Virus record (IMG/VR): IMGVR_UViG_3300009503_000008 | Location: 1 to 42,531 of that record | Source: a virus | Reading direction: 5' to 3' (one strand) | DNA length: 42,531 nt | In this document: in pieces, positions 1 to 42,531 of the stretch | Position numbering within the stretch: position 1 is the first letter of the stretch | How the letters are laid out: the number at the start of each line of letters is the position of its first letter | The notes under the pieces: generated by a model | What the model saw: only the letters and a program-made list of their open reading frames with translations | Told to the model about the DNA's origin: nothing | Databases searched by the model: none | Position numbers and translations under genes: made by a program

Positions 1-123
1 ATCCCAACCATAACATTTATCAAGAGAACCACAGGTATTAAAAAATCTCCTAGACTCATTATTTTCCACCTCCAATACATACCTCACGGCTTTCCGGGCC
101 GCTTCGTCCAGAGTTCTTCCGCC
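1..123. repeat. Terminal direct repeat, copy 1 (identical to 42409..42531)
   Basis: Bases 1-123 (atcccaaccataacattt...gagttcttccgcc) recur exactly at 42409-42531. The unique length is about 42,408 bp. Confidence 0.9.
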
Positions 124-4027: not shown

Positions 4028-4387
4028 TTACCTTGTCCGTTCATCCGTCTTGGCGACGGCATCCACGATGTCGTCGCCGCTCCAGGGCGTCTTTCTTCTG
4101 GCCCAGCAAACCCCCAGCATCAACCGGCCGAAGTAAACCTCCCTAACCCGCAACTTCGCGAGTTCCCGCCGGTTGAACCAAACCGGGGGCCTGTCGCCCG
4201 GATGGTCCTTGTACCAAAAATCCCCTTTCCGGGTGGCCCAGGCCAGCCCGATGGCGGCCTTGGGCGCTATTTTGGTGAACCACCATATCGAGTCTGGCTT
4301 GGTTGTCATGAGAAACCTCTTACCACAAAAGATAAAGATTGCCTTGCTGACGTTCGGTTCCTCAGAAGTGGCGGTCATGGTGTCCAT
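4028..4387 (-). CDS. Hypothetical protein (119 aa)
   Basis: Complete ORF, co-oriented with its neighbours. Its start overlaps the MTase stop, and its composition is protein-like. Confidence 0.6.
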   Translation of the reverse strand: MDTMTATSEEPNVSKAIFIFCGKRFLMTTKPDSIWWFTKIAPKAAIGLAWATRKGDFWYKDHPGDRPPVWFNRRELAKLRVREVYFGRLMLGVCWARRKTPWSGDDIVDAVAKTDERTR

Positions 4388-6423
4388 GGGATCATCCCCT
4401 CCGCTGCCAGAATCGCCATGCCGATCTCCCTCACCACCTGCGGGACCACGGCGTTACCGAGGGCTTGCAATTTCTGCCGCCGGAAGGGTGCCTTGCCAGC
4501 CGCAAGCCTCGGCGGCTCCCAGTGATATTGGTCGCACCCTGCGGGTGCGGGCCATCGATGTTCAGCCAGCCGGGAGGATAGCCCATCAGACAACACACCC
4601 AGTCCGGGTTGAGGGTGCCTTTTACCACGTTTGGCAATTGATCCGGCATATTCCTGTTTTTGTTCGGACCCCGGTAATCTCTTGCCGCAGGCGTGGGCCA
4701 CATCTTCGCATGGGCCACCGCCCCCGGCAGTGCATAATTCCCCGCCGAATCCCGCTGGTTCGGCCCTCCGTGATCCCCGTCCGATGTCCTGGGCGTGGGC
4801 CACATCTTCGCCATCTGCTCCAGTGTCGGGCCGAAACCTTGACCGCTGTATCCATCTATCTTTTTCGCTCTCGGCGTGGGCCAAAATCCAGACCCGATCC
4901 CTTCTGTGCGGGGTGCCGACGGCACAAGCCGGTATAACAAACGCCGCTGTTTTGTAGCCTTCACTTTCCAGGTCAGATAGCACATTGTCGAGTGCCATGC
5001 TGATGATTCCAACAACGTTTTCACCAAGCACCCAATGCGGCCTGACTTCCTTGACAACTCTAAGCATTTCAGGCCAGAGGTAACGGTCATCCTCTTTGCC
5101 TCTTCGCTTCCCGGCGCAGGAGAATGGCTGGCAGTTATGGACAATTGCTCCATCCGCAATATAACTCTCATCCCCCTCAACGGCGATATTGTAAACAGTA
5201 CCTATGCCGCATGGTTCTACTTTTCGTACCAATTTCCAACCATATAGCCCTTCTACATATGCGGAACGATTCCGTGATGGGATACATACAGCGTAAAAAT
5301 CTCGTTGATTTACGACTCTTCCTTCAATTATCTTCTTTCTTGGCACTTTACATTTTCGCACGGATGCTACAACACCGTAAGCTCGTTGTGCCAATAATGC
5401 TGCCCCATATGCCAGAGACTTACTAACGGTAGTTGCCCGTACTTCATTGGTCTTCTTGTCTTTATATCCATCACCCGAAAGATACCCATCGAGAAAAGCG
5501 CGAGCTCTACTTTCATCCAAAGCTAACACGAACCCAGGAATCGTTTTACCTGTTGCCTTATGTCCAAATTGCTTCAAAAAATCACAGAAGACAGAGGAAG
5601 TAATTATAAACTTGACTACTGTCCTTTCCTTGCTTTTAGTACAATTGAATCCTGCTTCCTTAATGCGTTGCCCCAATAAATCGGCTTCGTTTTCCGCACA
5701 ACAAATAACCACCCGCTTGGCTCTACTGTTAATACGGCTCCCCCTTTCCCCTTGCGGTATTTTGCTCTTACGTTTGTAGTCTACAACCCAACCATCTGCT
5801 AAAAACCTACCAACCAACCACCAAAACTCAAGATTTCTATCGTCTTTATAAATTGGTGGCAAAGTCTGAGCAATAAACATTCCTTTTATTTCCTTAGCTT
5901 GTTGCCAATTAGGCTTGCTCCAAACACGCACACACTTTCTCTTACTGCCTTCGCGTGGCATAGATATCCGATAAGTCCTCGCAAGAAAAGGATGTTCAGG
6001 CGTTGTAATCACATCAACTCCTTGTGCTTTCACGTGAATCAATGGAGCATTATCCCGTTTCATTACTGCAGTTACAGGTCTCCAGTTGCCACGGTGTGTT
6101 AGGACTATGTCACCAACCTTCAGTGTTTCAATCAGCTTGTATCCTTCCCAAGTTAAAACCATAGTTCCTTGAGCAAAACATGGAAACCCTCCGCAAACAA
6201 CGTCAATTGCTCCACTTTCAATACCTGCTTCCTCCAGACTCTGCTTTGTCAACCCGAGAATATCGCCGAATATCGGCACTTCCGGCCAGTGGTACTGTAG
6301 CACTTGCTGACAGAACGGTTCTAGCTCGCAGAAGGCCACGGTTCCGAAGGCCCCCGTGGACTCAAGGCCCAGGGAAAAGCCGCCAATGCCGGAGAATAAG
6401 TCAAGGACCTTTAACTTTGGCAT
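4375..6423 (-). CDS. DNA (cytosine-5)-methyltransferase precursor containing an intein
   Basis: Motif I is LDLFSGIGGFSLGL. Motif IV is split as GGFP|C...HN|CQPFSCAGKRRG. Motif VI is GENV, motif VIII is GTPHRRDRVWILA and motif X is LGNAVVPQV. Total length is 682 aa, of which 349 aa are intein. Confidence 0.9.
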   Translation of the reverse strand: MPKLKVLDLFSGIGGFSLGLESTGAFGTVAFCELEPFCQQVLQYHWPEVPIFGDILGLTKQSLEEAGIESGAIDVVCGGFPCFAQGTMVLTWEGYKLIETLKVGDIVLTHRGNWRPVTAVMKRDNAPLIHVKAQGVDVITTPEHPFLARTYRISMPREGSKRKCVRVWSKPNWQQAKEIKGMFIAQTLPPIYKDDRNLEFWWLVGRFLADGWVVDYKRKSKIPQGERGSRINSRAKRVVICCAENEADLLGQRIKEAGFNCTKSKERTVVKFIITSSVFCDFLKQFGHKATGKTIPGFVLALDESRARAFLDGYLSGDGYKDKKTNEVRATTVSKSLAYGAALLAQRAYGVVASVRKCKVPRKKIIEGRVVNQRDFYAVCIPSRNRSAYVEGLYGWKLVRKVEPCGIGTVYNIAVEGDESYIADGAIVHNCQPFSCAGKRRGKEDDRYLWPEMLRVVKEVRPHWVLGENVVGIISMALDNVLSDLESEGYKTAAFVIPACAVGTPHRRDRVWILAHAESEKDRWIQRSRFRPDTGADGEDVAHAQDIGRGSRRAEPAGFGGELCTAGGGGPCEDVAHACGKRLPGSEQKQEYAGSIAKRGKRHPQPGLGVLSDGLSSRLAEHRWPAPAGCDQYHWEPPRLAAGKAPFRRQKLQALGNAVVPQVVREIGMAILAAEGMIPWTP
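5134..6180 (-). mobile_element. Class-1 intein with a LAGLIDADG homing endonuclease domain, inserted in motif IV of the MTase
   Basis: Block A is CFAQGTMVLTWEGYKLIETLKVGDIVL and block B is TTPEHPF. The LAGLIDADG motifs are WWLVGRFLADGWV and AFLDGYLSGDGY. Block F is VYNIAVEGDESYIA and block G is GAIVHN, followed by +1 Cys. The region is visibly lower in GC than its flanks. Confidence 0.9.
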
Positions 6424-7778: not shown

Positions 7779-7951
7779 TCATCGCATTCCGGTACCGGGC
7801 CCGCATACAGGCAGTATTTCCTGCCACAGGTCCGGCACAGGCTCTGAGGCTCGTTTGGTACTCCGCAGCCGCATATCGGGCAGATCCATGGCTGGCCGCT
7901 GGCCGCAGAGTACAACTCAGCCCCGCATACGGGGCATGTGCGATGGATCAT
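7745..7951 (-). CDS. Small Zn-ribbon protein (68 aa)
   Basis: Internal ATG at 7951 with a GAGAAGGTGGTG SD. Translation is MIHRTCPVCGAELYSAASGQPWICPICGCG...CRTCGRKYC. Confidence 0.5.
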   Translation of the reverse strand: MIHRTCPVCGAELYSAASGQPWICPICGCGVPNEPQSLCRTCGRKYCLYAGPVPECDEWVPKCPEVTD

Positions 7952-8273
7952 TGGATTCACCACCTTCTCGGTTCTCCTCCGGATAGGGCGCAACACCATA
8001 CTTCTTAACCGTTTCGTCGCGGCTCCGAACAATAAGATCTCGATATTCCTTCACTAGGTCCTGTGCTTCGTCTATCGCAACTTTGCGCGTGGCGTATGCA
8101 CCACCAAGCCTGTAACCGGTGAGCATCTCACTTACGCACCAGAGGCCGTTCATCTTGTGTACAAACAACGTAAGGTCCGGTGCAGTAACGATTTTTTCTC
8201 CCCTCACCACGCGCCATTCGTGTTGGCCATCAACATTATCAACGGCGATGTAGAACTTGTCCTCGCCGAGCAT
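7917..8273 (-). CDS. Hypothetical protein (118 aa)
   Basis: ORF 7917..8291. I prefer the start at 8273 (MLGEDKFY...), which lies behind a GGGGAGGAGTG SD. Confidence 0.55.
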   Translation of the reverse strand: MLGEDKFYIAVDNVDGQHEWRVVRGEKIVTAPDLTLFVHKMNGLWCVSEMLTGYRLGGAYATRKVAIDEAQDLVKEYRDLIVRSRDETVKKYGVAPYPEENREGGESNDPSHMPRMRG

Positions 8274-8372
8274 GATTTCACTCCTCCCCATTCTTTTCGG
8301 CCACTTCCCGATTCTCGTGGGTTCAAACTATGAATCGTATTATGTATCCCGGCTATGCAGCCGGGCAAGACA

Positions 8373-9326: not shown

Positions 9327-10070
9327 CTAAAAATCTTGATGACATATCTTCCAATAACCGCAATGTTTTTCCGAACATAGGAAGTTATCCGGGTTAGGAT
9401 AGAACACTCCAGCGTTTATTGCGGCCACCACCCGCTCGGCGATGGCGGTAAACCGCTGTATGTCTCGTTCCGTCCGTTTCGCCTCCAGGGTGACGACCTT
9501 TGGGTTCCTTGCTTGCACCAAATAGTCAAGCCTCACTCCCGCCTCCGGTATGCCCATAAGGTACCGGTGCGCAAGGCTGTAAGCCGACAACTGGAGATTC
9601 TTGGCCGCGGAGTCCTCGCTCGGGGTTCTCGATGCCGTCTTGGTGTCGTGAATGTATCCTCTGTTGTCCAGCAGGTCGATAAACCCGAGCAAGGTGGTTC
9701 CCGCGAGGGGCACTTCCACCTTTTCCTCCACCAGGAATGGCTGTGTTTTGGGCGCAACCTCCTGGTGATAGAGTGCCGCCAGGGTTACCGCTTCATCCTT
9801 AACCTGGCCGGGCTTTTCGTCCGGCTCAAACTCAGTTAAATCTTGCTCCGCCTCAAAAGCGGCCGCGGTAACTTCTTTTACTTCATGCAGGGGCAGGTCC
9901 TGGTACGATTCAATCTTTTGCCTATAGTTGTGTTCCTGCCCCTTGTGCACCGCTCGTCCCTTCGTTAGCGCGGACTTCGGCGGTAGTACCATGCCGCATA
10001 CGTAGCGGTAATAGTAGGATGCTGGGCAGCGCAGGTACATATTGATCTGTGTCGGGGATATGTGATCCAT
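9327..10070 (-). CDS. PD-(D/E)XK nuclease, Cas4/RecB-like, with a Cys cluster
   Basis: YLRCP near the N-terminus, GFIDLLDNRGYIHDTK (D...D.K catalytic core) and a C-terminal CSEKHCGYWKIC cluster. This is the typical exonuclease partner of RecT. Confidence 0.8.
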   Translation of the reverse strand: MDHISPTQINMYLRCPASYYYRYVCGMVLPPKSALTKGRAVHKGQEHNYRQKIESYQDLPLHEVKEVTAAAFEAEQDLTEFEPDEKPGQVKDEAVTLAALYHQEVAPKTQPFLVEEKVEVPLAGTTLLGFIDLLDNRGYIHDTKTASRTPSEDSAAKNLQLSAYSLAHRYLMGIPEAGVRLDYLVQARNPKVVTLEAKRTERDIQRFTAIAERVVAAINAGVFYPNPDNFLCSEKHCGYWKICHQDF

Positions 10071-12588: not shown

Positions 12589-12726
12589 ATGAGTCACGGT
12601 CTCCTTGTTTTGGCGGGGGTACTACTGCTGGTGCTCCTGCCAATCGGCTTTTCTATCGACAAATCGGCCTATCAGCGCGGATTCCGCGATGGTCAGATGG
12701 ACGTGCTGAAACGCCGCCATGACTAG
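12589..12726 (+). CDS. Small membrane protein (45 aa)
   Basis: ATG at 12589 after GGGGAGGG. Translation is MSHGLLVLAGVLLLVLLPIGFSIDKSAYQRGFRDGQMDVLKRRHD. It overlaps the recombinase start. Confidence 0.35.
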   Translation: MSHGLLVLAGVLLLVLLPIGFSIDKSAYQRGFRDGQMDVLKRRHD

Positions 12727-14275
12727 GGCGCTTATCTATACCCGTTATTCCACGGACCGCCAACGTCAGGAGTCTACCTTGGCCCAGCTCCGTGCCTGCC
12801 GCGCCTACTGCGAGGTCCGGGGCTACACGATCGTCGCGGTCTTCTCCGATGAGGCCACCACCGGCACGACCGACGACAGACCGCAGTTTCAGGCGGCAAT
12901 GGACCTGGTGCGGTCGGGCGGGTGCGACGTGTTCGTGGTTCATAAACTCGACCGTTGGGCGAGGGATCGGATCGACGATGCGATCTATGACCGGGAGCTC
13001 CAGGCCGCCGGCGTGCGCCTGGAGTCCGTGGCGGAAGGCATAGACGAAAGCCGGCCGGCCGGCCATCTGATGCGCGGCGTGTTCACCGCGATAAACGATT
13101 TCTACTCCCGCAACCTCGCGGAGGAGTCGATGAAGGGACTCCGCGAAAATGCCTACCAGGGGCGGCACAACGGCGGCAAACCTCCCCTCGGCTATGACGT
13201 GGATAGGGATGGCCGCTACGTGGTCAACGAGCGGGAGGCGGCGGCCGTCCGCTTGATTTTCGCCATGGCGGCCGAGGGGCGGGGATACAGCGAAATAATT
13301 GACCGCATGACACGGGCCGGCTACACCACCAAGGTCGGCAAACCGTTCGGGAAGAATTCGATTCACGAACTTTTGACAAACGAGAAGTACATAGGGGTGT
13401 ATGTCTACAACCGCGTCCAGGAGCGCAAGCGGGGGCAGCCGCGTTCCAGCCGGCGGAGGAACCCGGAGGACAAAATCGTCCGGGTTCCGGGGGCGGTCCC
13501 GGCCATAATAGAGGAGGAGGTCTTTCGATCTGTGCAGGAAAAACTGGCCGCCCGCCGGTCCCACTCCGAGCGGGCCCGCAATGTCGCCAGGACGGTCTAC
13601 CTTTTGGCCGGCCTGGTCCGGTGCGGCGAATGCGGATCGGCCTACGTCGGCACGTCCACCGTCTGCCGGGGCAAACGCTACCACTACTACCAATGCGGCC
13701 GGCGTGCCCAGACGCGCGACTGCCGGGCCCGGCGAATCCCCAAGGAGGATCTGGAGGCCGTGGTGCTGGCCGAGGTGCGCCAGACGTTTTTCGGCCTGGA
13801 GGGGAATCGTCAAATAGTCGCCGACCTGGTGGAGATGTCCCGCCGGCAAAACGAGTCGGCCGGTCGGGAGATGGAGGAGGCCACGAAGGCGCTGGCGGCG
13901 GCCAAGCGTGAAAAGGAGAGACTGATCCAGGCCATCAAGGACGGCGTACCGGCCGCCGTGGTGAAGGATGAGCTGATGGCCGCCGACGCCAGGGTGACGG
14001 CCCTGCAGGGGGAAATCGAGAGGTTGTCGGCCGCCAAGGGGATCGAGATAACGCCTGGGATGGCGGAGAAATTCCTGCGGGAGCTGCGGAATGTGTATTC
14101 CGTAGTGCTGGAGGGAGGGGACGACCGCCGGGTGCAGGCGGCCATCCGGAGACTGGTGGGAGGGGTGGAGATCCAGGCGGATCGGGTCATCCTGGATCTC
14201 CGGATAAATTTGCAGGCTGATGGTGTCGGAGGCCCGACATGGGCGGCCTGCAAAGTGGTGACGACCAAAAAATAA
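12719..14275 (+). CDS. Large serine recombinase (phage integrase type)
   Basis: The resolvase catalytic domain is ALIYTRYSTDRQRQ...FVVHKLDRWARD. It is followed by a recombinase domain, the zinc ribbon CGECGSAY...YYQC and a C-terminal coiled coil. Length is 518 aa. Confidence 0.9.
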   Translation: MTRALIYTRYSTDRQRQESTLAQLRACRAYCEVRGYTIVAVFSDEATTGTTDDRPQFQAAMDLVRSGGCDVFVVHKLDRWARDRIDDAIYDRELQAAGVRLESVAEGIDESRPAGHLMRGVFTAINDFYSRNLAEESMKGLRENAYQGRHNGGKPPLGYDVDRDGRYVVNEREAAAVRLIFAMAAEGRGYSEIIDRMTRAGYTTKVGKPFGKNSIHELLTNEKYIGVYVYNRVQERKRGQPRSSRRRNPEDKIVRVPGAVPAIIEEEVFRSVQEKLAARRSHSERARNVARTVYLLAGLVRCGECGSAYVGTSTVCRGKRYHYYQCGRRAQTRDCRARRIPKEDLEAVVLAEVRQTFFGLEGNRQIVADLVEMSRRQNESAGREMEEATKALAAAKREKERLIQAIKDGVPAAVVKDELMAADARVTALQGEIERLSAAKGIEITPGMAEKFLRELRNVYSVVLEGGDDRRVQAAIRRLVGGVEIQADRVILDLRINLQADGVGGPTWAACKVVTTKK

Positions 14276-14376
14276 GCCGCCCGCAGCGGCTAATCTTCCT
14301 TTCTCGCTTTTCTCCTCGGCTCCCCGAACACCGCCGCCATGCCCTCGAAGGAAAAGGTAGTTGCAGACAAAAAAAG

Positions 14377-14396
14377 AACCCCACCGAAGCGGGGTT
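14377..14396. terminator. Bidirectional terminator-like hairpin between convergent genes
   Basis: AACCCC-accgaagc-GGGGTT, flanked by an A-run upstream and agttttc downstream. It lies between the integrase and RHH gene 3' ends. Confidence 0.4.
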
Positions 14397-14401: not shown

Positions 14402-14611
14402 TCATGATTCTTGGAATTCTTTCTCTTGAATATATCGTTCTATGGCAGCTGCCAAGACATCCTGCCGGCTGACCGATACCCGCACCGGGCCCGTTTGGGC
14501 CGCTTTGGCCTCCGCGTCCAGACGGGCAACCAGGGCATCCAACTGGGCTAGGAGTTTTTCGGGAATCCGAACGTAAATTATTTTACTATTAGGGATTGTT
14601 TTGTTGGGCAT
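14402..14611 (-). CDS. Ribbon-helix-helix (CopG/Arc-like) protein; last gene of the cassette
   Basis: IIYVRIPEKLLAQLDALVARL...SRQDVLAAAIERYI fits the strand-helix-helix RHH layout. Confidence 0.65.
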   Translation of the reverse strand: MPNKTIPNSKIIYVRIPEKLLAQLDALVARLDAEAKAAQTGPVRVSVSRQDVLAAAIERYIQEKEFQES

Positions 14612-14658
14612 ATTGTATTCTCCTTTCTCCCGCCTTAGCCGGGCGGGACGGCTATGTA
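14612..14658 (-). promoter_or_regulatory. Cassette intergenic module A (TACATA-hairpin-RBS)
   Basis: mRNA sense: TACATAGCC-gTCCCGCCcggctaaGGCGGGAg-AAAGGAGAatacaat-ATG. A perfect hairpin GCCGGGGCcaaaGCCCCGGC lies just upstream (14664-14683). Confidence 0.6.
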
Positions 14659-14683
14659 GAGGTGCCGGGGCTTTGGCCCCGGC

Positions 14684-15469
14684 CTAGTCTACCCTGCCAC
14701 CGTTCGGGAAGCGGTGCAGGGCGATATATGCACCCTGCCCGACTTCGATGGGGTCATGGTCCCGGGCGATGATACGAACGGGACCACGCAGGTACAGGGC
14801 GGCACGCGGAAACCCGTTGTAGAGCACGCCGAGAGGGGTAGCGTGCTCCTCGTTGTCCTCCGGAACATCCACTTCGCCGGCATCTACCGGCACGTGGTTG
14901 AAAAACCACGGCCGGTGGGTAGGCCAGGAGTTCCAAGTGGCGAGGTCCGCCGGCAACGCCTCGGGCTGAGTGACAATTTCGAGTCCGCCCTGGGTGATCA
15001 CGGGCTCCCCTTCTATTGCCGCCGGGGCGTTGGTGTCGTTTTGGGCACTTGTCGCCCAGAACACCGGCCGGCCATAGTGCCAGCCGGCCAGGGAGGGGGC
15101 AAGCACGAACACATCCATGAGGTTTTTTGCCGGCGTCAGCGGCGCAAGCCCAACGCGCCGCGCCAGCGAGAAGAGTGAACCTACCATGGCAGCGGGCACG
15201 GTCAGCCGCACCCACTCGCCAACATATCCGTCTACGGGGTGTGGCGCAGGCGGTTCCCCGCCGATTTGGAGGTGATGGCGGCCGTTCCAGGCCGCCAGGA
15301 TGGCGCCCGTGTCCTGACCAGGCTGGTAGTCCACCAGCTGATGGCTGACGTAGGGGCTGTTGAGCCCCGCCGCGTGGGCCTCTATGGCCCCTACCTGCAC
15401 GGTAGGAGCCGTGCAGGCGCAGATGGATTCGACGGCGCTTTGCAGGCGGTTAAGGTCGATCAAACGCAT
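14684..15469 (-). CDS. Hypothetical protein (261 aa), cassette gene 6
   Basis: ORF 14684..15604. The start at 15469 (MRLIDLNRLQSAVES...) follows an AAAGGAGA SD and module B. I recognise no family. Confidence 0.6.
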   Translation of the reverse strand: MRLIDLNRLQSAVESICACTAPTVQVGAIEAHAAGLNSPYVSHQLVDYQPGQDTGAILAAWNGRHHLQIGGEPPAPHPVDGYVGEWVRLTVPAAMVGSLFSLARRVGLAPLTPAKNLMDVFVLAPSLAGWHYGRPVFWATSAQNDTNAPAAIEGEPVITQGGLEIVTQPEALPADLATWNSWPTHRPWFFNHVPVDAGEVDVPEDNEEHATPLGVLYNGFPRAALYLRGPVRIIARDHDPIEVGQGAYIALHRFPNGGRVD

Positions 15470-15519
15470 GAAAATTCTCCTTTCGCCCCGGCGGCTTAGT
15501 CCCGCCCGCAGGCTATGTA
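15470..15519 (-). promoter_or_regulatory. Cassette intergenic module B
   Basis: mRNA sense: TACATAGCC-tgcGGGCGGgactaagCCGCCggggcg-AAAGGAGAattttc-ATG. A long hairpin lies at 15526-15568 (CCCGCTCCcTGCCCGC...GCGGGCAaGGAGCGGG). Confidence 0.55.
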
Positions 15520-15578
15520 CTATGGCCCGCTCCTTGCCCGCTGGACGTTCTGGCGGGCAGGGAGCGGGAGACAGGGGC

Positions 15579-16313
15579 CTAGAGACCCAGTGCAACGGCC
15601 TCATGCGGCTCGACTTCGCGGGGCCTGCCGGCCTCGCTTAACCGCATGAGGACTGAACCTCTGCGGCGGGTCCTCCATTGCCGCCATACCGCCGTGCCAG
15701 GATCGCCGGTGACCAGGGAAATGTAGCCATTTCCCTGGAGGTCCATCCTGACCCCCTCACAACCGGTGACGGGAGTGATGTCCTGGCGGGCTGCCAGGAC
15801 AAATTTTCCTGGAGCCGGAATCAGCCGATATATCTCCACCCCGGCCGCTTCACCTGCGGCCTCGTAGGTATACCCCGGCCACACATGGCCGGAATACGAA
15901 AACTCAATGCCTGGTGTCCCAGCGGCCTGGGGGCCCACAAGGGCCTGGCCCCAGCGGCCGTTCTGTGACTTCCGCAGGAGGAGGGTTACCTCCTCCTTTG
16001 CCGCCGCTTGTGCTGGCGGCGGGACGACCGTTACTTGGTAGGTAACGGCCTCGCCGGCCACCTGCCGCAGGGTCTCAAGGTCTAACTCTTTCCCCCGGAG
16101 CTCAGGGGAAAGAGTAAGAGGAATTTCTGTCACGCTGGCAGCGAGCGCCGCCAGCGACAAAGGGAGTACCCCAATGACGTGTTTCCCCTGTACGTCCTGC
16201 GGGGTGGCGTGCGAAATAACACGCACGTCATCCCCGATTAGGCCGCGCTCCCGAAGGAGCTCAACCAAAGCCGGATGCCGAGTTACTACAATTGTGTTTT
16301 CCATATTATTCAT
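15579..16313 (-). CDS. Csx16-like (VVA1548-family) N-terminal domain fused to an unknown C-terminal domain (244 aa), cassette gene 5
   Basis: NTIVVTRHPALVELLRERGL...VISHATPQDVQGKHVIGVLPLSLAALAASVTEIPLTLSPELRGKELDLETL matches my recollection of the Csx16 pattern (v.sRH.ga.eWl...g....Hl....i..gd.ViG.LP..LAA.v......L.l.lp...RG.EL). The start is at 16313 or 16304. Confidence 0.5.
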   Translation of the reverse strand: MNNMENTIVVTRHPALVELLRERGLIGDDVRVISHATPQDVQGKHVIGVLPLSLAALAASVTEIPLTLSPELRGKELDLETLRQVAGEAVTYQVTVVPPPAQAAAKEEVTLLLRKSQNGRWGQALVGPQAAGTPGIEFSYSGHVWPGYTYEAAGEAAGVEIYRLIPAPGKFVLAARQDITPVTGCEGVRMDLQGNGYISLVTGDPGTAVWRQWRTRRRGSVLMRLSEAGRPREVEPHEAVALGL

Positions 16314-16354
16314 TCCTTTCTCCCGCCCTTTAGCCCGGGCGGGCTGGATTATGT
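16314..16354 (-). promoter_or_regulatory. Cassette intergenic module C
   Basis: mRNA sense: ACATAATCC-agCCCGCCCgggctaaaGGGCGGGag-AAAGGA-ATG. The upstream element at 16355-16392 is homologous to 17428-17470. Confidence 0.55.
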
Positions 16355-16403
16355 TCGGTGGCCGGTTGTTCACCCGGACGACCAGCCGAGGTGCGGGGCT
16401 AAT

Positions 16404-16820
16404 CTACCACGCACTAACGACAACATCCCCTTCCTGCGTTGTGAAGCTCTTAACGAGCTCCACAACTGGGAAATAAAAGGTTTTCATAAGGAAATCCTCC
16501 TGAATGGGGAACGAATTCCCCCTCACAATGCTGTAGCGAGGAATATCCTTCTGAACCCATGTCACCCGTTGAATGGGGCAGGTGACGATCATATCCGCCC
16601 CCTCGGGCCAGGGACCTTTCCAGCGGTCCCTGGGGCACGGCTCTGCGCTCATGACGTAGACTTGGAAGTTTTCACTCATGTCTACGCCACGAGCGCGGTC
16701 AAAATAGGCCACTCGTGGGGTGGGTTGTGCCCCATCCAACGGCTGGACAAAATCGTCGAACCACTTCCCAGCACATTGGTTCGGGGTATTGAGGTATCCG
16801 CAGAACTCATAGATTTTCAT
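16404..16820 (-). CDS. Hypothetical protein (138 aa), cassette gene 4
   Basis: Complete ORF starting MKIYEFCGYLNTPNQCAGKWF..., behind AAAGGAAGG and module D. Confidence 0.6.
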   Translation of the reverse strand: MKIYEFCGYLNTPNQCAGKWFDDFVQPLDGAQPTPRVAYFDRARGVDMSENFQVYVMSAEPCPRDRWKGPWPEGADMIVTCPIQRVTWVQKDIPRYSIVRGNSFPIQEDFLMKTFYFPVVELVKSFTTQEGDVVVSAW

Positions 16821-16868
16821 TTTTATCCTTCCTTTCTGCCGCCTTTTGCCCGGCGGCAGGGCTATGTA
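16821..16868 (-). promoter_or_regulatory. Cassette intergenic module D
   Basis: mRNA sense: TACATAGCC-CTGCCGCCgggcaaaaGGCGGCAG-AAAGGAAGGataaaa-ATG. It begins 3 nt after the upstream stop. Confidence 0.6.
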
Positions 16869-16871
16869 CCT

Positions 16872-17378
16872 TTAGGCTTCTTCCCGCGCAACCCAGCGGT
16901 ACGCGGGACTATAGAAACGCTGATTCTCCTGCCTTTCCGCCGCCTCAATCTCCGCCGCGAGATGGCGGAACCGCGCGGCGAAAGAGCAGCGACGTGGTAC
17001 GTAGACAACGCGGTTAAAGCTGTCCACACAGACCCGGCGGAAGTCCATCTTCCGTGTGCCAGCGTAGTAAATATCCACCATGCTGGCGACAGTAGCCAGG
17101 TCTACGCGAACCTCCACGTCATCCATCTGACGCGCCGGGATGTCCTGGCGCGGGATAAGGACGTAGACATGGCCTGTCAAGAATGGCCGGTACAAGCTAA
17201 AGCACGTTTCACATGGAGTGAATGCGGTGAGTTTTTGTTGGGCGGAGACGTGATACAGAGGCGTCCCCGCTGGGATAACAACGGGTTCATCGTGTAAGCC
17301 GGCGTCCATATAACTATACATTCGCGCCGGCGGCTTTTGGGCTATCGCAGAGACAGGAACGCGCTCGCCACGTTTCAT
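16872..17378 (-). CDS. Hypothetical protein (168 aa), cassette gene 3
   Basis: Complete ORF starting MKRGERVPVSAIAQKPPARMYSYMDAGL..., behind AAAGGGGA and module E. Confidence 0.6.
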   Translation of the reverse strand: MKRGERVPVSAIAQKPPARMYSYMDAGLHDEPVVIPAGTPLYHVSAQQKLTAFTPCETCFSLYRPFLTGHVYVLIPRQDIPARQMDDVEVRVDLATVASMVDIYYAGTRKMDFRRVCVDSFNRVVYVPRRCSFAARFRHLAAEIEAAERQENQRFYSPAYRWVAREEA

Positions 17379-17427
17379 CGTTCTTTCCCCTTTCTGCCGC
17401 CTTCGCCCCGGCGGCCGGGCTTATGTA
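17379..17427 (-). promoter_or_regulatory. Cassette intergenic module E
   Basis: mRNA sense: TACATAAGCC-cgGCCGCCggggcgaaGGCGGCag-AAAGGGGAaagaacg-ATG. Confidence 0.6.
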
Positions 17428-17477
17428 GGGAACCAGTGGCCGGTTGGTAACCCGGACGGCCAGCCGGAGAGTTAGAT

Positions 17478-17693
17478 TTAATAAAAAGCTTTGTCGCCTA
17501 TAAGATTGACTATTACCTCGTCCGGAGTCTGCCGGACCACCTCTATGGCCTCGGGTAAACCGAAGCCCTTGGCCGGGCGGCGCACTCCGTCTTCTTCGTG
17601 TCCGAGTACCCAGCAGATCCGTCCTACCAACGGTTCGTATCCCGGGAATCCCCAAAATGCTTTTCTGGCGATTTGTTCTTTGTCCAAGTTCAT
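17478..17693 (-). CDS. Hypothetical protein (71 aa), cassette gene 2
   Basis: The track ORF is 17478..17798. I prefer the internal start at 17693 (MNLDKEQIARKAFWGF...) because AAAGGAGA and a module copy precede it. Confidence 0.5.
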   Translation of the reverse strand: MNLDKEQIARKAFWGFPGYEPLVGRICWVLGHEEDGVRRPAKGFGLPEAIEVVRQTPDEVIVNLIGDKAFY

Positions 17694-17759
17694 TCTCCTT
17701 TCATTTTTTCCCTTGAGCGTAGGGCCCCGAAGGGCCCGGCCGGCATTCTCGGCCTTGTA
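17694..17759 (-). promoter_or_regulatory. Cassette intergenic module G (divergent copy)
   Basis: mRNA sense: TACAAGGCC-...GGGCCCttcgGGGCCC...-AAAGGAGA-ATG. Confidence 0.4.
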
Positions 17760-17794
17760 CCTAGCGGGATTATTCAGAAGAATTTTTTCTGTTT

Positions 17795-18046
17795 TCATTG
17801 CAGAGCCCCCTTTTTCAATGCGGCCAGTTTATTTTGGTAAACCTGCCAAATTGCCTGTCTAACTTCTGACCGTTTGCGTTCATCGTTACCGGCCACGATA
17901 TTAACTAGTCGGCTAGCATTTCGACTTAGATTTACCGCGGTAACTCGATATCCTTTGTCCCATAAAATATCAGCAACTTTAGCTACGTCCAGAGGGTCAA
18001 GAAATAATTCATCGTCCATAAGTGTACTAGCAAGCTGGTTTTTCAT
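17795..18046 (-). CDS. Hypothetical helical protein (83 aa), cassette gene 1
   Basis: Complete ORF starting MKNQLASTLMDDELFLDPLDVAKVADILW..., behind AAAGGGGA and module F. Confidence 0.6.
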   Translation of the reverse strand: MKNQLASTLMDDELFLDPLDVAKVADILWDKGYRVTAVNLSRNASRLVNIVAGNDERKRSEVRQAIWQVYQNKLAALKKGALQ

Positions 18047-18094
18047 TTTCTTCCCCTTTCTCCGCCCCGCACCCCGGCGGCCAGGTCGTATGTA
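18047..18094 (-). promoter_or_regulatory. Cassette intergenic module F
   Basis: mRNA sense: TACATACGACC-tggCCGCCggggtgcgGGGCGGag-AAAGGGGAagaaa-ATG. The perfect hairpin GGCCGGGAcctaaTCCCGGCC lies at 18096-18116. Confidence 0.55.
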
Positions 18095-18265
18095 TGGCCG
18101 GGATTAGGTCCCGGCCACCGCTGGTTTCCTTCGTTCTCCTGTCCCCTCGTCGCGGCCGTTGGGACTGCCGCTCTTGGCCAGGTATCCGGGTACTGGCGGT
18201 CTCTATATTCTGTTTTCAAGGAGCCGCCGGTTGCCCGGCCCGGTGTCGTTTTTCGATCTGGCATA

Positions 18266-18294
18266 ATCTTAGCACCGTCACGACAGCCTGTCAA
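18266..18294 (-). promoter_or_regulatory. Near-consensus sigma70 promoter for the cassette (TTGACA-17-TAAGAT)
   Basis: The minus strand reads TTGACAggctgtcgtgacggtgcTAAGAT. The -35 is at 18294-18289 and the -10 at 18271-18266. It lies about 220 nt upstream of gene 1. Confidence 0.55.
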
Positions 18295-18555
18295 GACCTT
18301 GTCAGATTTTATTTTTCCCTACAGCCACGTGGGTTTGCTGGTTTCAGTATCGGCGAACGGTCAGGATCGACAGGCGAATGGTCGAATAGAACGGTTGAAC
18401 GGTTTAGCCCTACAGCCGTAAGCCCTTCAGCTATTTGAACATTTTTTTATTTTTTTTATTTTTTCTCTTTTTTACCATTTCCTGATATATAGATACAAAA
18501 GGTTGGTTATGTATCGTGGGAAAAGCTTAAATATGTGGAAAATTTTGTGTTAAAC

Positions 18556-18679
18556 GAAAAGAAGAAATAGGAGGGCGGGAAGAAAGAAAAGGGGAGAAGG
18601 GAAAGGATAGAAGAATAGAAGAAGAGGGAAAAGGGAAGAGGGAAAGGAGAAGGAGAGGGAAAAGGGGAAGGGAAAGGAA
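18556..18679 (+). repeat. Polypurine (A/G) low-complexity tract
   Basis: About 124 nt contain only about 4 pyrimidines. Positions 18617-18679 form an uninterrupted 63-nt A/G run (GGAAAGG-like units), followed by a pyrimidine run at 18681-18713. Confidence 0.85.
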
Positions 18680-18692
18680 TGCCTTTTCTTTT

Positions 18693-18760
18693 CTTTATTT
18701 TCTTTTCTTTTCCATAGATAGGGTAGGAGATAAGGGAATGGAAAAGAAAAGAAAATAAAG
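18693..18760. repeat. Perfect 21-bp inverted repeat with a 26-nt spacer
   Basis: ctttattttcttttcttttcc (18693-18713) pairs with ggaaaagaaaagaaaataaag (18740-18760). Confidence 0.85.
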
Positions 18761-18842
18761 TAAAAGGGTAATGTATATAAGAAAATCCCTGCACGCTTGC
18801 AAGGAAATTAATATTTTTCGGCAATACTGTTTAGTCGTAGTT

Positions 18843-19703
18843 TTATATCTTTGGCAGATAACCCGCAATCCTATCTTCCGGGTGAACATGCGTATATTTC
18901 TGCGTAGTGAGCAGACTGGCATGTCCCAGCGTCTCCTGCACCACCCGTATATTGGCCCCGGCTTCCAGGGCGTCGGTCGCTCCGGTATGCCGCAGCCAGT
19001 GGGGAGATACGTTTTTCCCCAGGCCAGCCAGCTCCCCGGCCCGGCGGACTATCCTGTATCCCCACTGCCGCTTGAACGGCCAAACTAGGTCGTCCGGTTC
19101 GATGTTGGCGGGTCCGTACAGACGCACCATTTGCTGTACCAGGTGCAGAGGTATCTTCACCGTCCGGGTCTTATCTCCCTTCCCTCGAACGGTCATGAAG
19201 AACCATTCCCCCGTTTCGTCCGGCCTGATCTCCCGCCAGCGTACTGACACGCTCTCCTCCACGCGCAAGGTGGAGTAGTATAGAAACCTGATATACACCG
19301 CATCCCGGTGGTTATGACTCTCTGCGGCGGCTATCAGGTCTTCCAGCTCCCGCCGAGTCAGTACCCGCTCGGCGGTTTTGTCCTTGGGTGTCCGTATCTT
19401 CTGACCGGTCCAGGGATTGCTCTGCACTATTCCTTCCTTAATTAACTTATTCCACAGGCTGGACATGGCGGCCACCGTCAGCGCGACCGTGGCGTCCGAG
19501 TACCCGTCGGCGTAAAGCTTCTTGATAACCAGCATGGCCTCGTCGGCGGTCAGTGACGGTATCCGCCAAGTGGCAACGTTGATCCGGCGCAGGGCGGCGA
19601 GGTAGGTTTGGTTGGTGCTCCCGCTCGTGGGCGCGATCAGCCAGCGGTTGATCACCCGCTCGATGTCGTCAGGGTGTCTGCCGGACGGTACGATGTCAGA
19701 CAT
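18843..19703 (-). CDS. Tyrosine recombinase, XerC/XerD-sized (286 aa)
   Basis: An N-terminal SAM-like core-binding region is followed by the catalytic motifs R...HWLRHTGAT...LGHASLLTTQKYTHV. Confidence 0.9.
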   Translation of the reverse strand: MSDIVPSGRHPDDIERVINRWLIAPTSGSTNQTYLAALRRINVATWRIPSLTADEAMLVIKKLYADGYSDATVALTVAAMSSLWNKLIKEGIVQSNPWTGQKIRTPKDKTAERVLTRRELEDLIAAAESHNHRDAVYIRFLYYSTLRVEESVSVRWREIRPDETGEWFFMTVRGKGDKTRTVKIPLHLVQQMVRLYGPANIEPDDLVWPFKRQWGYRIVRRAGELAGLGKNVSPHWLRHTGATDALEAGANIRVVQETLGHASLLTTQKYTHVHPEDRIAGYLPKI

Positions 19704-25895: not shown

Positions 25896-26849
25896 ATGGC
25901 GAACATCACGGTATTCAACCAGACGCAGGCGCAGACGGCCAAGTATTGGTACGAACGCCTGATCTACACCTACGGCCCCGAAACCATCGCGTCCGGGGTC
26001 AACCCCGTGTTCAACATCCAGAGAATAAACAAAACCACAACGCCAAGCTGGATGGCGGTGCTGTCGCGCCTGGCCGTGAGTCAGTCCGCCCAGGTGGCGC
26101 TCGACTTCTCCTTCGACGGCCAGTCGATCCATGCGTCCGCATTTCAGGGATTCACCGACGCTGCCATCGCTGGCGTGCGGACTGACCGGCTGTTCATTCC
26201 GGCCGTCAGGAACATCGCCATGCAGGCGGTGAATTCCGGAGCGCCGGTTGCGAACTTCCAACTCACCTTCCAAGCCGAGATGCGCAAGCTGTCCATAGCC
26301 GAAAAGATTCTGCGCGGAATACAACTCACTCCCGACGAACATGCTATCGCGGCCGACGTCGGGGTGGCTCCCCTGGTGGCCAAGGGAACGGCCCCGATAC
26401 CATGGGAGGCGCAGATGGATCGCACCTACCGGAACAGGATCATTTATGAGGACGTGCGGTTGCTCCACGTCGACTCGTCGAGTACCGACCAGTCGTTCCT
26501 GACGATCCAAACGCAGAGTTCGGACGAGTTCTTGGTGTTACGCGAACTGGCCATCGAGGGCGGGGCGGCCGTGACCGTATCGGTTGACCGTGACGACGAC
26601 AGTAACTACATGGGTGTGAATGGAGCGGCCTTCGTTCAGGCCGACGACGCCCCTTGGGACGTATTCGTGCCGGCGATGCAGTACCTCACATTCCACGCCC
26701 AGAGTGCGACCAACCTGACCGGCGTGCCGATCAGGGCCAGGGTATGGCACTGCACGCTCTCCAACATCTTACGGGTGCGTTTCGGCCTGGCCGGGAAGGG
26801 CGACGTGCCGGACAGCGTGTACGAAAAGGCACTGGCGGGGGTGGCGTGA
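25896..26849 (+). CDS. Beta-rich virion protein candidate (317 aa)
   Basis: Complete ORF after GGGTAAGGTG. No family is recognised. Confidence 0.55.
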   Translation: MANITVFNQTQAQTAKYWYERLIYTYGPETIASGVNPVFNIQRINKTTTPSWMAVLSRLAVSQSAQVALDFSFDGQSIHASAFQGFTDAAIAGVRTDRLFIPAVRNIAMQAVNSGAPVANFQLTFQAEMRKLSIAEKILRGIQLTPDEHAIAADVGVAPLVAKGTAPIPWEAQMDRTYRNRIIYEDVRLLHVDSSSTDQSFLTIQTQSSDEFLVLRELAIEGGAAVTVSVDRDDDSNYMGVNGAAFVQADDAPWDVFVPAMQYLTFHAQSATNLTGVPIRARVWHCTLSNILRVRFGLAGKGDVPDSVYEKALAGVA

Positions 26850-28510: not shown

Positions 28511-30348
28511 TGCCGGGCATAGGAGGGGCTTTGCCACCGTTGCAGGGATTTCTGGCATCGAGTATTGACCCGGCAAGGCGGTCGGCGGTGGCACAGAACG
28601 AATTGGGCTTGGCTGTCGACGTTGTTCGTGACTACAATGCTAGCGGATCGGCACAGTCAACGACCGGGAGCATTTCCGCCGGGTCGAACGTCTTGACACT
28701 GGCAAGTGCGATTGACTTCAAGAACGGACAGGGTATCTCCATCGCCAACGCCGGTCCCATGCCAACCATTTCGGCACCGACAGCGGCAACCGCCACGGCG
28801 GAAGGGACAACCGGATCAACCACCATCGGCTACGCTGTGGCCGCATTGGACGGCAAAGGTGGGGTCACTGCTTCGTTCGCTTTTTCGGTGACAAACGCCA
28901 ATGCCACATTGTCATCAACGAATTACGTAGCCTTATCCGTTACCGCCGTAACAAATGCGGCGGGTTATGCATGGTACAGGACTTCCACCAACGGTACAAG
29001 TCCGACGACAACGGGATTTATCGGCGTTACCTCTGGGACTTCGTTGAACGATACCGGACTTGCGGTTATTACGCCTCCGATTGGAGTACCTGCTTCCGCA
29101 CCTTCATCAGCTCTTGGTGACTTATTGGTAACCAGCATTACGGCAGGGGCGGGGACAACCATTCTGACCCTTGCGGCAAGTGCGTCAACAACCGTCACCG
29201 GGGCGGCAGTCAACCACAACGACACGGCGGCGATTCAGGCGGCATTCGCGGCAAGCCTACGGGTCCATGTCCCACAGGGCATCTATAACATGTCTGGTAC
29301 GGTTACACCACAACTTGGCACCTTCTTGGAATGCGAGTCCGGAGCTATTTTTGACGGTACAAATGCGCCAGGAGATGCCTTTCAGCTAGTATCTGGCAAT
29401 TGGAATTCGCGTCTGCGTTTTGGTAAAATACAAAACTATCTTTTCGGTGCGGCTATTCATGCCTTGCCTGGTGCCTCAGTAGCTGACGTCTGGTTTGACC
29501 ACCTGAAGGCAAATAAAGACGGTTTGCTTATTGAGTCCAGTTCTGCTGGTAACTCCCTTGATGATAACTGGTCGGGTATATGGATAACAAGTAGCACGTA
29601 TGCCGCAATCCATATCAAGGCTACCAATTCATCTGATGCTATTCAGGGGCATATATTTAGAATCAATTTACTTGATATCAACCTACACAGTATTCTATTT
29701 GATGCTCCAAGTGGCATTACTCCATCATGGAATACCAATGTATTTCATATCCCCGTAGTAGATGGCGGTAACATCGCTAGTAGTACCGGCATTTCGACTA
29801 CAAATAGCAATGGCGTCCAGGGATGTACATTTAATTGTGAAGGATTCTTTGGAGGATTCAAAGGTTATTACGTAAACCTGAACGGTTCCAATAATAACCA
29901 ATTTAAGTTGGCACTAAATACTGCCGTAACAGCAACTACCTTCATCGTAGTCGGAGTAGGTAATAAGATATTAAGTCCTAATTTTATCGAAACACCTGCA
30001 ATAAACACAACACCTATTGCTATGGCTACAGCAAGCGGAAGTCAAGCCAGTTTTAACGGCGGTGCATTGCTTAATTGTTTTAGGGCGCATCTTAGTATAA
30101 CGGTAGGGGCGCTCTCGGCAGGAGCGACGGCGGATTTCTATGCCTACCATGCTTTTACGCAGGGATACGGAAGCCTGGTCAGGGCCTTTCCAAGGTGGAA
30201 TGTACCGCTTATTATCTTGACAGCCGAAGATGAAAGCATAATAGCAGGAACGGATGGGAATACATCGGCAAATCAGATACACATTAGGGTATATGCGGTG
30301 GCGGCGGTGCCGGCGGGAACGTATAACATTGACTTAGAGGTTGAATGA
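28510..30348 (+). CDS. Right-handed beta-helix (pectate-lyase-superfamily) spike / depolymerase-like protein (612 aa)
   Basis: NHNDTAAIQAAFAASLRVHVPQGIYNMSGTV matches the Pectate_lyase_3 N-terminal motif (dDt.AiQaA......v.vP.G.Y). The remainder is repetitive and N/G/S/T-rich. GC content drops in the C-terminal two-thirds. Confidence 0.6.
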   Translation: MPGIGGALPPLQGFLASSIDPARRSAVAQNELGLAVDVVRDYNASGSAQSTTGSISAGSNVLTLASAIDFKNGQGISIANAGPMPTISAPTAATATAEGTTGSTTIGYAVAALDGKGGVTASFAFSVTNANATLSSTNYVALSVTAVTNAAGYAWYRTSTNGTSPTTTGFIGVTSGTSLNDTGLAVITPPIGVPASAPSSALGDLLVTSITAGAGTTILTLAASASTTVTGAAVNHNDTAAIQAAFAASLRVHVPQGIYNMSGTVTPQLGTFLECESGAIFDGTNAPGDAFQLVSGNWNSRLRFGKIQNYLFGAAIHALPGASVADVWFDHLKANKDGLLIESSSAGNSLDDNWSGIWITSSTYAAIHIKATNSSDAIQGHIFRINLLDINLHSILFDAPSGITPSWNTNVFHIPVVDGGNIASSTGISTTNSNGVQGCTFNCEGFFGGFKGYYVNLNGSNNNQFKLALNTAVTATTFIVVGVGNKILSPNFIETPAINTTPIAMATASGSQASFNGGALLNCFRAHLSITVGALSAGATADFYAYHAFTQGYGSLVRAFPRWNVPLIILTAEDESIIAGTDGNTSANQIHIRVYAVAAVPAGTYNIDLEVE

Positions 30349-42467: not shown

Positions 42468-42531
42468 TATTTTCCACCTCCAATACATACCTCACGGCTT
42501 TCCGGGCCGCTTCGTCCAGAGTTCTTCCGCC
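42409..42531. repeat. Terminal direct repeat, copy 2
   Basis: Exact copy of bases 1-123. This indicates either an assembly overlap of a circular molecule or true terminal redundancy. Confidence 0.9.

Follow-up and report, generated by a model that had tools for sequence, protein, structure and literature searches.

What does a run of seven small genes, set between two recombinase genes and apparently transcribed as one unit, do for the mobile element that carries it? The question is raised by positions 14,402 to 18,294 of the IMG/VR virus record IMGVR_UViG_3300009503_000008, which we analysed computationally over its whole 42,531-nucleotide (nt) stretch (hereafter referred to as the window). 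A first-pass annotation, made from the sequence alone, took the seven open reading frames (ORFs; o1 to o7 in the order of transcription) for a new multi-gene defence or anti-defence system, possibly acting on cyclic-nucleotide signalling. Here we report that o5 carries a domain of the Csx16 family, that the array is organised like a phage locus encoding a validated inhibitor of type III CRISPR immunity, and that its genes are exchanged one at a time among related arrays. Our reading, to which we give a probability of about 60%, is that the cassette is an anti-defence island of independent genes, the identifiable activity of which is the degradation of cyclic tetra-adenylate (cA4), the messenger of type III CRISPR; o1 to o4, o6 and o7 would be anti-defence candidates by association only.

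A Csx16 domain in the fifth gene

When all seven ORFs were compared with Pfam, PHROGs, PADLOC and NCBIfam, Csx16 was the sole family assignment. The N-terminal ~90 residues of o5 reach 63.6 bits with Pfam PF09652 (Csx16/Cas_VVA1548), for which the gathering score is 25 (E = 2e-17, profile positions 2–90 of 91), and several PADLOC Csx16 models match as well (E = 8.6e-18). Every highly conserved residue of the family is kept: o5 is identical in each of the 30 columns with a conservation of 85% or more across 106 homologs, including T11, R12, H13, H35, G48, P51, T62, E63 and R73. By its sequence o5 belongs to the Csx16 family, so that the likeness recorded for its N terminus in the first-pass annotation proves strong.

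For cellular Csx16, biochemical work has established a ring-nuclease activity specific for cA4 (Hoikkala et al. 2025, PMC12409355). By homology to these characterised enzymes, we infer that o5 binds and cleaves cA4, with the same specificity expected of its chemistry. It would cleave the cA4 made by the Cas10 of a host type III CRISPR system, and the loss of cA4 would keep cA4-dependent effectors from firing, as with AcrIII-1, a protein of unrelated fold. The suggested action on cyclic-nucleotide signalling is therefore plausible for one gene of the cassette, through its Csx16 domain.

Whereas cellular Csx16 belongs to type III CRISPR loci, o5 lies on a mobile element: the 42.4-kilobase (kb) element contains no cas genes, and none was found within the 10 kb examined around the Csx16 relatives on phage-like contigs, which include full-length and stand-alone proteins (the latter 75% identical to the N terminus of o5). 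Such a cas-free location is as expected for a viral anti-CRISPR (Acr) version of Csx16. Among the relatives, Csx16 is also fused to the restriction-alleviation domain Lar (PF14354) and to pentapeptide repeats (P0045, P0077 and P0029); the fusions to Lar support an anti-defence reading, and both kinds are further candidate multi-target anti-defence proteins. A hidden Markov model survey found Csx16 in 2 of 28,114 isolate phage genomes (PMC12409355), and tblastn with o5 found none in 50,697 phage records; o5 belongs to a mobile-element Csx16 clade that isolate collections barely sample.

In a further difference from the cellular enzymes, o5 has a disordered linker and an extra C-terminal domain of ~105 residues (Table 1). 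Structure prediction followed by fold searching, as proposed in the first-pass annotation, succeeded for o5 in its first half. The AlphaFold2 (AF2) model of o5 is confident, with predicted local distance difference test (pLDDT) scores above 90 in the N-terminal domain, where strands and helices alternate, and of 70–93 in the C-terminal domain. Foldseek then returned nothing significant from the PDB or BFVD; the best match was an uncharacterised SIRV11 protein (E = 0.012, TM 0.25–0.31), and the C-terminal domain, which has no detectable relatives in these searches, was left without a match. A profile search with o5 against PDB sequences gave chance-level matches only.

The fusion brings in a second possible role for o5, which we consider quite unlikely: a cA4 sensor, composed of a CARF-like Csx16 and an effector or oligomerisation domain, or a cA4 sponge, rather than an enzyme-type anti-CRISPR. 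A sensor would let the element detect the firing of type III CRISPR and then change its behaviour (abort, lyse or switch). Csx16 fusions are present in defence catalogues, such as CARF_HEPN_CSX16 and CARF_CSX16_TM of PADLOC, the C-terminal domain is separately mobile, occurring behind a ribbon-helix-helix (RHH)-like N terminus in P0006 to P0008, and the related Csx15 has been proposed to act as a sponge (PMC12409355). However, the residues conserved in the family of the active stand-alone enzymes are all present in o5, no effector fold can be recognised in the C-terminal domain, and the N-terminal domain has its closest relatives in stand-alone proteins of 134–150 residues on mobile elements. 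These points favour an enzyme over a sensor or sponge.

Tandem paralogous genes of ~100–145 codons lie downstream of the Csx16-fusion gene on one related contig (L007, 6901–9635) and on another (L019, 78–1728); on the latter, the copies are 29–51% identical to one another.

The slot of a validated acrIII-1 locus

A tblastn search with o3 against deposited phages gave a single match, Tsac_2836 of Thermoanaerobacterium phage THSA-485A (31% identity, E = 3e-12). Tsac_2836 heads a co-oriented array that runs to Tsac_2829, a CopG-like gene, and that includes the DUF1874 gene Tsac_2833. The duf1874 gene of THSA-485A (AcrIII-1) abolished cA4-dependent, but not cyclic hexa-adenylate (cA6)-dependent, type III CRISPR immunity (10.1101/778746). 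In both elements an array of small genes converges on a serine integrase that follows cI/cro; the o3 homolog of THSA-485A is first in its array, a cA4 ring nuclease (putative in the window) lies within, and a CopG gene, or here a possible RHH gene, comes last.

The two loci differ in most of their genes. The THSA-485A ring nuclease is a DUF1874 protein, unrelated in sequence to Csx16; Pfam finds DUF1874 in no ORF of the cassette, and tblastn detects no similarity of o5 to the THSA-485A locus, so that AcrIII-1 is a functional analogue only. Apart from the o3 homolog, the genes of the THSA-485A array are not homologous to the cassette, and the array contains neither the intergenic module described below nor any Rfam ribozyme. 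As the serine integrases of the two elements are only 24% identical, the likeness is one of organisation between distant elements, in which non-homologous ring nucleases would occupy the same slot. Taken with the cas-free, phage-like relatives of Csx16, this synteny makes counter-defence likelier than defence, a choice that the first-pass annotation had considered beyond reach from the sequence.

Within the THSA-485A array, the 297-nt gap between Tsac_2835 and Tsac_2834 (L037, 5765–6060) contains two tRNA T-arm-like sequences, GGTTCGAATCC and GGTTCGATACC, which ARAGORN and Rfam do not recognise. This intergenic region may be another form of RNA punctuation.

Genes exchanged one at a time

Gene families are distributed as a mosaic across seven arrays (the window, L012, L017, L021, L024, L029 and L030). 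What the relatives have in common is the promoter, the slot in the genome and the intergenic module; the genes themselves are exchanged singly at module boundaries. The clearest case is that of L012 and L017, which are 98.4% identical through the end of the gene for the o5-type C-terminal domain; there, L017 has a 940-base-pair (bp) insertion that is exactly one o6-type cassette between modules, and beyond it the identity is 82%. Full-length relatives of o5 (37–81% identity) occur on a 110-kb phage-like contig (L003) and on L007, L010 and L029, and a further one (P0002, 90% identity) comes from a 1-kb contig. In L003, L007 and L010, which represent three other element types, tblastn found none of o1 to o4, o6 and o7 beside o5. 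The closest o3 homolog (86% identical) is the first gene of L030, an o6 homolog stands solo in a bacterial chromosome, and the one o4 homolog with readable context, on two contigs of 1.1 and 1.5 kb, has no neighbour from the cassette. The mosaic sharing, the o6 indel and the solo copies together indicate that the genes travel singly. Cassette exchange occurs at the modules, as the breakpoints show, and the drop in identity across the junctions fits homologous recombination as its mode.

These observations bear on the proposal with which the analysis started, that the seven genes form one multi-protein system of defence or anti-defence, with the Csx16–C-terminal-domain protein as its cyclic-nucleotide subunit and the RHH protein as its regulator. 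The genes do share one orientation and lie close together between a single promoter and a single terminator, and o5, or its C-terminal domain, adjoins o6 in the window, in L017/L021 and in L029. This adjacency among close relatives is the sole recurrent neighbourhood: a search for conserved co-occurrence and synteny, suggested as a check in the first-pass annotation, yielded no other. By contrast, o5 is found without the other six genes in three element types, o6 is a clean indel between near-identical arrays and occurs alone, the closest o3 homolog sits in an array of otherwise different genes, and the o4 homolog on its two short contigs has no cassette neighbour. The missing conserved co-occurrence largely refutes the single system, which we regard as very improbable; o6 is best described as an independent cassette, often but not always adjoining the gene for the o5 C-terminal domain.

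On L012 (880–7826; ENA ERZ27247235 k141_867328), the type IV CRISPR-Cas genes Csf1 and Csf3, as well as two PAPS-reductase/DndC-like genes, lie directly upstream of the array promoter, and a tRNA 3′ fragment adjoins the tyrosine integrase.

A hairpin–UACAUA–hairpin module at the gene junctions

Six of the seven ORFs, all but o2, are preceded by the same RNA module, which stands at five gene junctions and at the 3′ end of the leader before o1; the claim of a conserved module before each ORF holds with this one exception. The module consists of a GC-rich hairpin (hairpin 1), a spacer, a near-invariant TACATA, a second hairpin (hairpin 2), the Shine–Dalgarno (SD) sequence GAAAGGRG, which replaces the GGAGG-type ribosome-binding site (RBS) of the first-pass annotation, and the start codon. 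Hairpin 1 has 5–9 bp, with at least 15 different stems among the instances, and is mostly separated from TACATA by 0–3 nt (up to 13 nt in a few). Hairpin 2 is mostly CCGCC..GGCGG and sometimes flipped (GGCGG..CCGCC).

The motif GGCGGNAGAAAGG occurs exactly in the cassette only; with up to two mismatches it has 17 matches against 4.8 expected, a number that none of 100 shuffled sequences reached. Non-redundant instances of the module number 27, in nine loci that include the unrelated 110-kb element L003. They also include three hairpin–TACATA(–hairpin–SD) elements in the window outside the cassette, at 8346 (−), 10106 (−) and 25839 (+), before the genes at 7917–8273, 9327–10070 (PD-(D/E)XK) and 25896–26849. 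The module is thus a feature of the whole element, concentrated in the array.

Both hairpins are well supported. The hairpin windows fold with −13.5 and −13.1 kcal/mol, compared with −4.2 and −4.3 kcal/mol for the background (Mann–Whitney p ~1e-16). Within a same-register subset, 91.7% of the hairpin 2 cells pair and two of the pairs vary in a compensatory way; the covariation score exceeds that of 496 of 500 shuffles, and the pairing collapses when the partners are slid against each other. These results come from folding each instance and counting pairs, as RNAalifold on a MAFFT alignment of whole modules gave no structure, the variable hairpins being misaligned. The modules match no Rfam family, even at permissive E-values. 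The CC that follows TACATA might have paired with the SD sequence as an anti-SD, but the pair counts do not support this (79% paired, no covariation).

A predicted twister-sister ribozyme at the o1/o2 junction

An Rfam scan of the whole window gave one match above its gathering score (34 for RF02681): a three-way-junction twister-sister ribozyme (Table 1), aligned to model positions 1–81 with the optional stem deleted. The predicted ribozyme occupies the gap from the o1 stop to the o2 start, which explains why o2 alone has no module. Its minimum-free-energy fold is the expected three-way junction, with P1, an internal loop and two hairpins. Of the conserved core, GCUAG and GCUCA are present (consensus G5, C6, A8 and G9; G59, C60, U61, C62 and A63), and a change of A7 to U is tolerated in twister-sister (PMC5660989); position 64 and the SL4 loop depart from the consensus (see below). 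In the numbering of that crystal-structure study, the predicted scissile bond is C17715^A17714, 21 nt 5′ of the o2 AUG. A 106-residue reading of o2 would run through the ribozyme, which supports the 71-residue start. A search of 23 related loci detected no other ribozyme.

A predicted member of a proven class of self-cleaving RNA at one junction, together with exchange points at the modules of the others, leads us to propose the module as a unit of cistron punctuation or insulation. It would act in processing, each cistron receiving its own protected ends and its own ribosome entry site, and would incidentally provide a patch of homology for the shuffling of cassettes. That the module is a new RNA-processing element, interchangeable with twister-sister, and that the two make anti-defence genes plug-and-play cassettes, is a tentative idea that we hold to be possible rather than probable. 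On this idea the module could be a new small self-cleaver or the dedicated site of a nuclease of the host or of the element; a UACAU-specific enzyme of the MazF/EndoA type is an attractive candidate. Enzymes of this type, like ribozymes, leave 5′-OH and 2′,3′-cyclic phosphate ends.

The array could also be hypervariable 'moron' cargo, unrelated to defence but for o5, with the module acting as a terminator-like hairpin and a strong translation start and undergoing no processing. The five ORFs without informative homology, the three modules beyond the array and the presence of UACAU in coding sequence at no clearly reduced frequency fit that account. It leaves aside the synteny of the slot with the THSA-485A acrIII-1 locus, including the o3 homolog and the terminal CopG gene, and the sole module-free junction, where a predicted self-cleaving ribozyme argues that RNA cleavage is selected at junctions. 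We judge it unlikely, and prefer the anti-defence island.

Structured elements between cistrons have precedents in the RNase III sites between the early genes of phage T7 and in the synthetic RiboJ insulators, both of which punctuate polycistronic RNA. As in these, a cut at the junctions here, one of which has a predicted self-cleaver, would leave a hairpin at the upstream 3′ end and a hairpin-protected downstream 5′ end with its SD sequence; unlike them, the module coincides with DNA recombination breakpoints, and its cleavage is a proposal only. In cluster K mycobacteriophages, the SAS/ESAS motifs are conserved, asymmetric, RBS-containing sequences just upstream of many starts, sometimes following an inverted repeat. 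Our module likewise contains the RBS a few bases 5′ of start codons, but it differs in sequence and host lineage, combines two covarying hairpins with a near-invariant UACAUA, and has a ribozyme as its alternative.

Integron arrays offer another comparison, with a single promoter, promoterless single-gene cassettes, structured boundary repeats and an adjoining tyrosine recombinase. That the tyrosine recombinase of the window inserts and excises cassettes at attC-like intergenic elements is nevertheless close to negligible as an explanation. A tyrosine recombinase does lie immediately upstream of the array, and single-gene cassettes bounded by a repeated structured element are exchanged at their boundaries. 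However, this recombinase is Xer-like and not IntI: its best matches are Xer-type models, all below their cutoffs, and with the integron-integrase model TIGR02249 it reaches 100.6 bits, far short of the cutoff of 265. Its gene points in the same direction as the array instead of diverging from it, and the heads of the L012 and L030 arrays lack a recombinase of this kind. The repeats, each of which carries the SD sequence of its downstream gene, are two independent 5–9-bp hairpins around TACATA rather than long imperfect attC palindromes with R and L boxes, and the fall in identity across junctions looks like homologous exchange.

Layout of the array and the remaining genes

The seven ORFs, all on the minus strand and of the sizes first given (83, 71, 168, 138, 244, 261 and 69 residues), lie between a promoter-like site and a terminator hairpin (span 18294–14377; Table 1), and the ENA gene calls on the source contig independently give the ORFs of 168, 138, 244, 261 and 69 residues. 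The promoter predicted in the first-pass annotation stands, with 10 of 12 consensus positions and a TG extension, as does the leader, which measures ~215 nt rather than ~220. Only one other minus-strand match to the promoter consensus occurs in 5 kb, a weak one (9/12) within the array, and promoters of the same type head the parallel arrays L012/L013/L017/L020 and L030. Over its full length, the leader shows no striking structure (z = −2.1), and it has no Rfam match, even at permissive E-values. From one sigma-70-type promoter, a single RNA of seven independent small genes would be made, ending at the terminator-like hairpin. On its right-hand side the slot has a conserved border, marked by the stretch at 14268–14347, which overlaps the end of the serine integrase gene; where the L012 and L030 arrays end in an HTH_59 (excisionase-like) gene, o7 has taken its place in the window.

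Table 1 Features of the array and its flanks in the window.
Feature	Position (nt)	Strand	Remarks
Xer-like tyrosine recombinase	18843–19703	−	Phage_integrase domain
Sigma-70-type promoter-like site TTGACA-17(TG)-TAAGAT	18266–18294	−	10/12 positions, TG extension
Leader, ~215 nt	18047–18265	−	3′ end is first hairpin–TACATA–hairpin–SD module, ~18044–18122
o1, 83 residues	17795–18046	−	No significant family match
Twister-sister ribozyme, three-way-junction type, predicted	17704–17772	−	RF02681, 54.4 bits, E = 1.2e-9 (whole window)
o2, 71 residues	17478–17693	−	ATG 17693, alternatively TTG 17687
Module before o3	17376–17477	−	Hairpin 1, TACATA, hairpin 2 GCCGCC..GGCGGC, AGAAAGGGG SD, ATG
o3, 168 residues	16872–17378	−	Distant homolog of Tsac_2836 (phage THSA-485A)
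Module before o4	16818–16908	−	TACATA directly after o3 stop; hairpin 1 within o3 3′ end
o4, 138 residues	16404–16820	−	Rare family, conserved N-terminal YEFCGWLNTPDECAG
Module before o5	16311–16399	−	AACATA variant; hairpin 2 CCCGCCC..GGGCGGG
o5, 244 residues	15579–16313	−	Csx16 domain, linker and beta-rich C-terminal domain
o5 Csx16 domain, residues ~6–96	16026–16298	−	Pfam, PADLOC
o5 disordered linker, residues 102–138		−	AF2
o5 beta-rich C-terminal domain, residues ~139–244	15582–15899	−	AF2
Module before o6	15467–15563	−	Hairpin 2 flipped (GGCGG..CCGCC), inside outer GCCUGC..GGGGC helix
o6, 261 residues	14684–15469	−	Very rare family
Module before o7	14609–14683	−	
o7, 69 residues	14402–14611	−	Possible RHH protein
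Intrinsic-terminator-like hairpin	14377–14396	−	AACCCCGCTTCGGTGGGGTT + T-run; closes unit
Remnant: HTH_59 gene 3′ end and terminator closing arrays L012/L030	14268–14347	−	85% (L012) and 94% (L030) identity
Serine recombinase/integrase	12719–14275	+	Resolvase, Recombinase and Zn_ribbon_recom domains

Outside o5, the four databases gave no significant match for o1, only chance-level NCBIfam matches for o2 (E ≥ 0.03), with no significant family match, and nothing informative for o3, o4 or o6; eight genes of array L012 and two of L030 were likewise without informative match. The families are rare: that of o3 has 2 proteins and that of o6 has 6 among 5.8e9 clusters, and that of o4 has 9 representatives among 1.84e9 clusters. 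Profiles of the o4 and o6 alignments retrieved nothing from PDB sequences, o4 has no PDB or Pfam relative, and the AF2 model of o6, built on an alignment of 6 sequences, has low confidence (pLDDT 36.8). Searches of deposited phages by tblastn with o4, o6, o7 and two late proteins returned no match. From their context alone, o1 to o4 and o6 are presumed to act separately, in counter-defence or host takeover.

The last ORF, o7, matches phrog_38461 (E = 9.5e-4), has no PDB relative and occupies the slot of the CopG gene Tsac_2829 in THSA-485A. Its sequence weakly suggests an RHH autoregulator, a candidate Aca-like protein, so that the regulatory role first proposed for it is plausible, if weakly founded. 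By eye, only short imperfect palindromes (GACAG-G-CTGTC) are seen near the promoter. In acr-aca operons, a strong constitutive-type promoter drives small, unrelated and often exchanged genes, followed at the 3′ end by a gene for a DNA-binding protein. The cassette resembles these in its promoter, its run of small exchanged genes and its small 3′ putative DNA-binding gene; it differs in that the regulator assignment is weak, no operator-like inverted repeat is detected at the promoter and no known Aca family is matched.

The source element

The first 123 nt of the window (1–123) are identical to the last 123 (42409–42531), so that the contig closes as a circle of 42,408 bp. The source DNA is a complete episome or a circularly permuted genome, rather than a fragment of an integrated prophage, and we describe the element as circular, temperate and phage-like. 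The circle encodes a cI/cro-like helix-turn-helix pair, RecT, a PD-(D/E)XK exonuclease, a replication initiator, an intein-containing C5 methyltransferase and a GH25-like hydrolase. The domains of both genes that flank the array confirm its position between a serine integrase and an AT-rich region with a tyrosine recombinase; the unit has the appearance of an autonomous accessory operon adjoining the integrase and the cI/cro switch, in agreement with the slot first proposed. Megablast of 9 kb against deposited phages gave no match, and the exact module pattern had three isolated matches in genome contigs, in unrelated metagenome-assembled genomes and apparently by chance, which point to no host.

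The AT-rich stretch between the Xer-like recombinase gene and the array promoter (18440–18840) is strongly purine/pyrimidine-skewed, with a long imperfect palindrome (~18663–18696) and many spurious miRNA-like Rfam matches; its possible roles are those of an origin, of a dif/att-like site or of a barrier to transcription. Elsewhere on the circle, the C5 cytosine DNA methyltransferase gene (4375–6423, −) is split by an intein with a Hint domain and a LAGLIDADG homing endonuclease, which coincides with a stretch of low GC content (0.44, 5001–6000). A family-2 glycosyltransferase gene (30334–31269, −), antisense within the late region and in a low-GC island (0.47, 29000–31000), looks like a separately acquired moron.

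Weighing the anti-defence reading

Several points weigh against an anti-defence island and the RNA processing attached to it, and we gather them here. Only one of the seven genes has a match to a known anti-defence family; for the other six, the label of an island is guilt by association. For o5 itself, the older and narrower equivalog-domain model NCBIfam TIGR02620 scores 26.9 bits, below its cutoff of 46.35; Foldseek against the PDB and BFVD did not link the model to CARF, Crn1 or Crn2 folds; and the fused C-terminal domain could alter the role of the protein (sensor plus effector, or sponge). The link of o3 to THSA-485A is a single distant homology, at 31% identity. As to o7, the RHH likeness seen in the first-pass annotation comes out weak (RHH_1, E = 0.039, below threshold; phrog_4738 'transcriptional repressor', E = 0.036), and a repeat search around the promoter (18200–18460, seed 6) detected no inverted repeat of 8 nt or longer.

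At the RNA level, the ribozyme departs from the consensus at U64, which is A, and in the SL4 loop (GAGAAUGCC versus GUGCAAGCC), and its self-cleavage at the bond given above is a prediction. Cleavage of the module is proposed; as a check on a UACAU nuclease, TACAT was counted in sense coding sequence and is not clearly depleted there. As to the setting, a host with type III CRISPR and cA4 signalling is assumed. The label 'phage' is provisional, as the late genes have no recognisable structural homologs: in the presumed late region (21500–41700, +), PHROGs, Pfam and tblastn against 50,697 phages found no recognisable capsid, portal, terminase or tail genes, and the matches there are restricted to fn3, a GH25-like hydrolase and a weak zincin-like match.

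Implications

To our knowledge, viral ring nucleases are the sole broad strategy against type III CRISPR, and experimentally they comprise one fold, DUF1874. The window would add a second viral ring-nuclease fold, Csx16, which is joined to an uncharacterised domain and lies in a slot syntenic with that of a validated acrIII-1 locus. What is new relative to the THSA-485A locus is the Csx16 fusion in place of AcrIII-1, the mosaic of single-gene cassettes and a transcript with a predicted ribozyme and an undescribed module. New Acr candidates follow from the locus: o5 itself, the C-terminal domain of o5, and o3 and o6 as recurrent neighbours.

What self-cleaving ribozymes do in bacteria and phages has, as far as we know, long been an open question. 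A predicted ribozyme at one junction and the module at the others make the idea that such ribozymes punctuate or insulate cistrons testable, and if the idea is true, the twister-sister ribozyme would have a concrete biological role in bacteria and phages. A joint of ~60 nt common to relatives would then permit the shuffling of cassettes at the DNA level, in an integron-like cassette economy without an integron integrase. The module is a point at which single genes are swapped among relatives, which suggests how anti-defence repertoires turn over fast.

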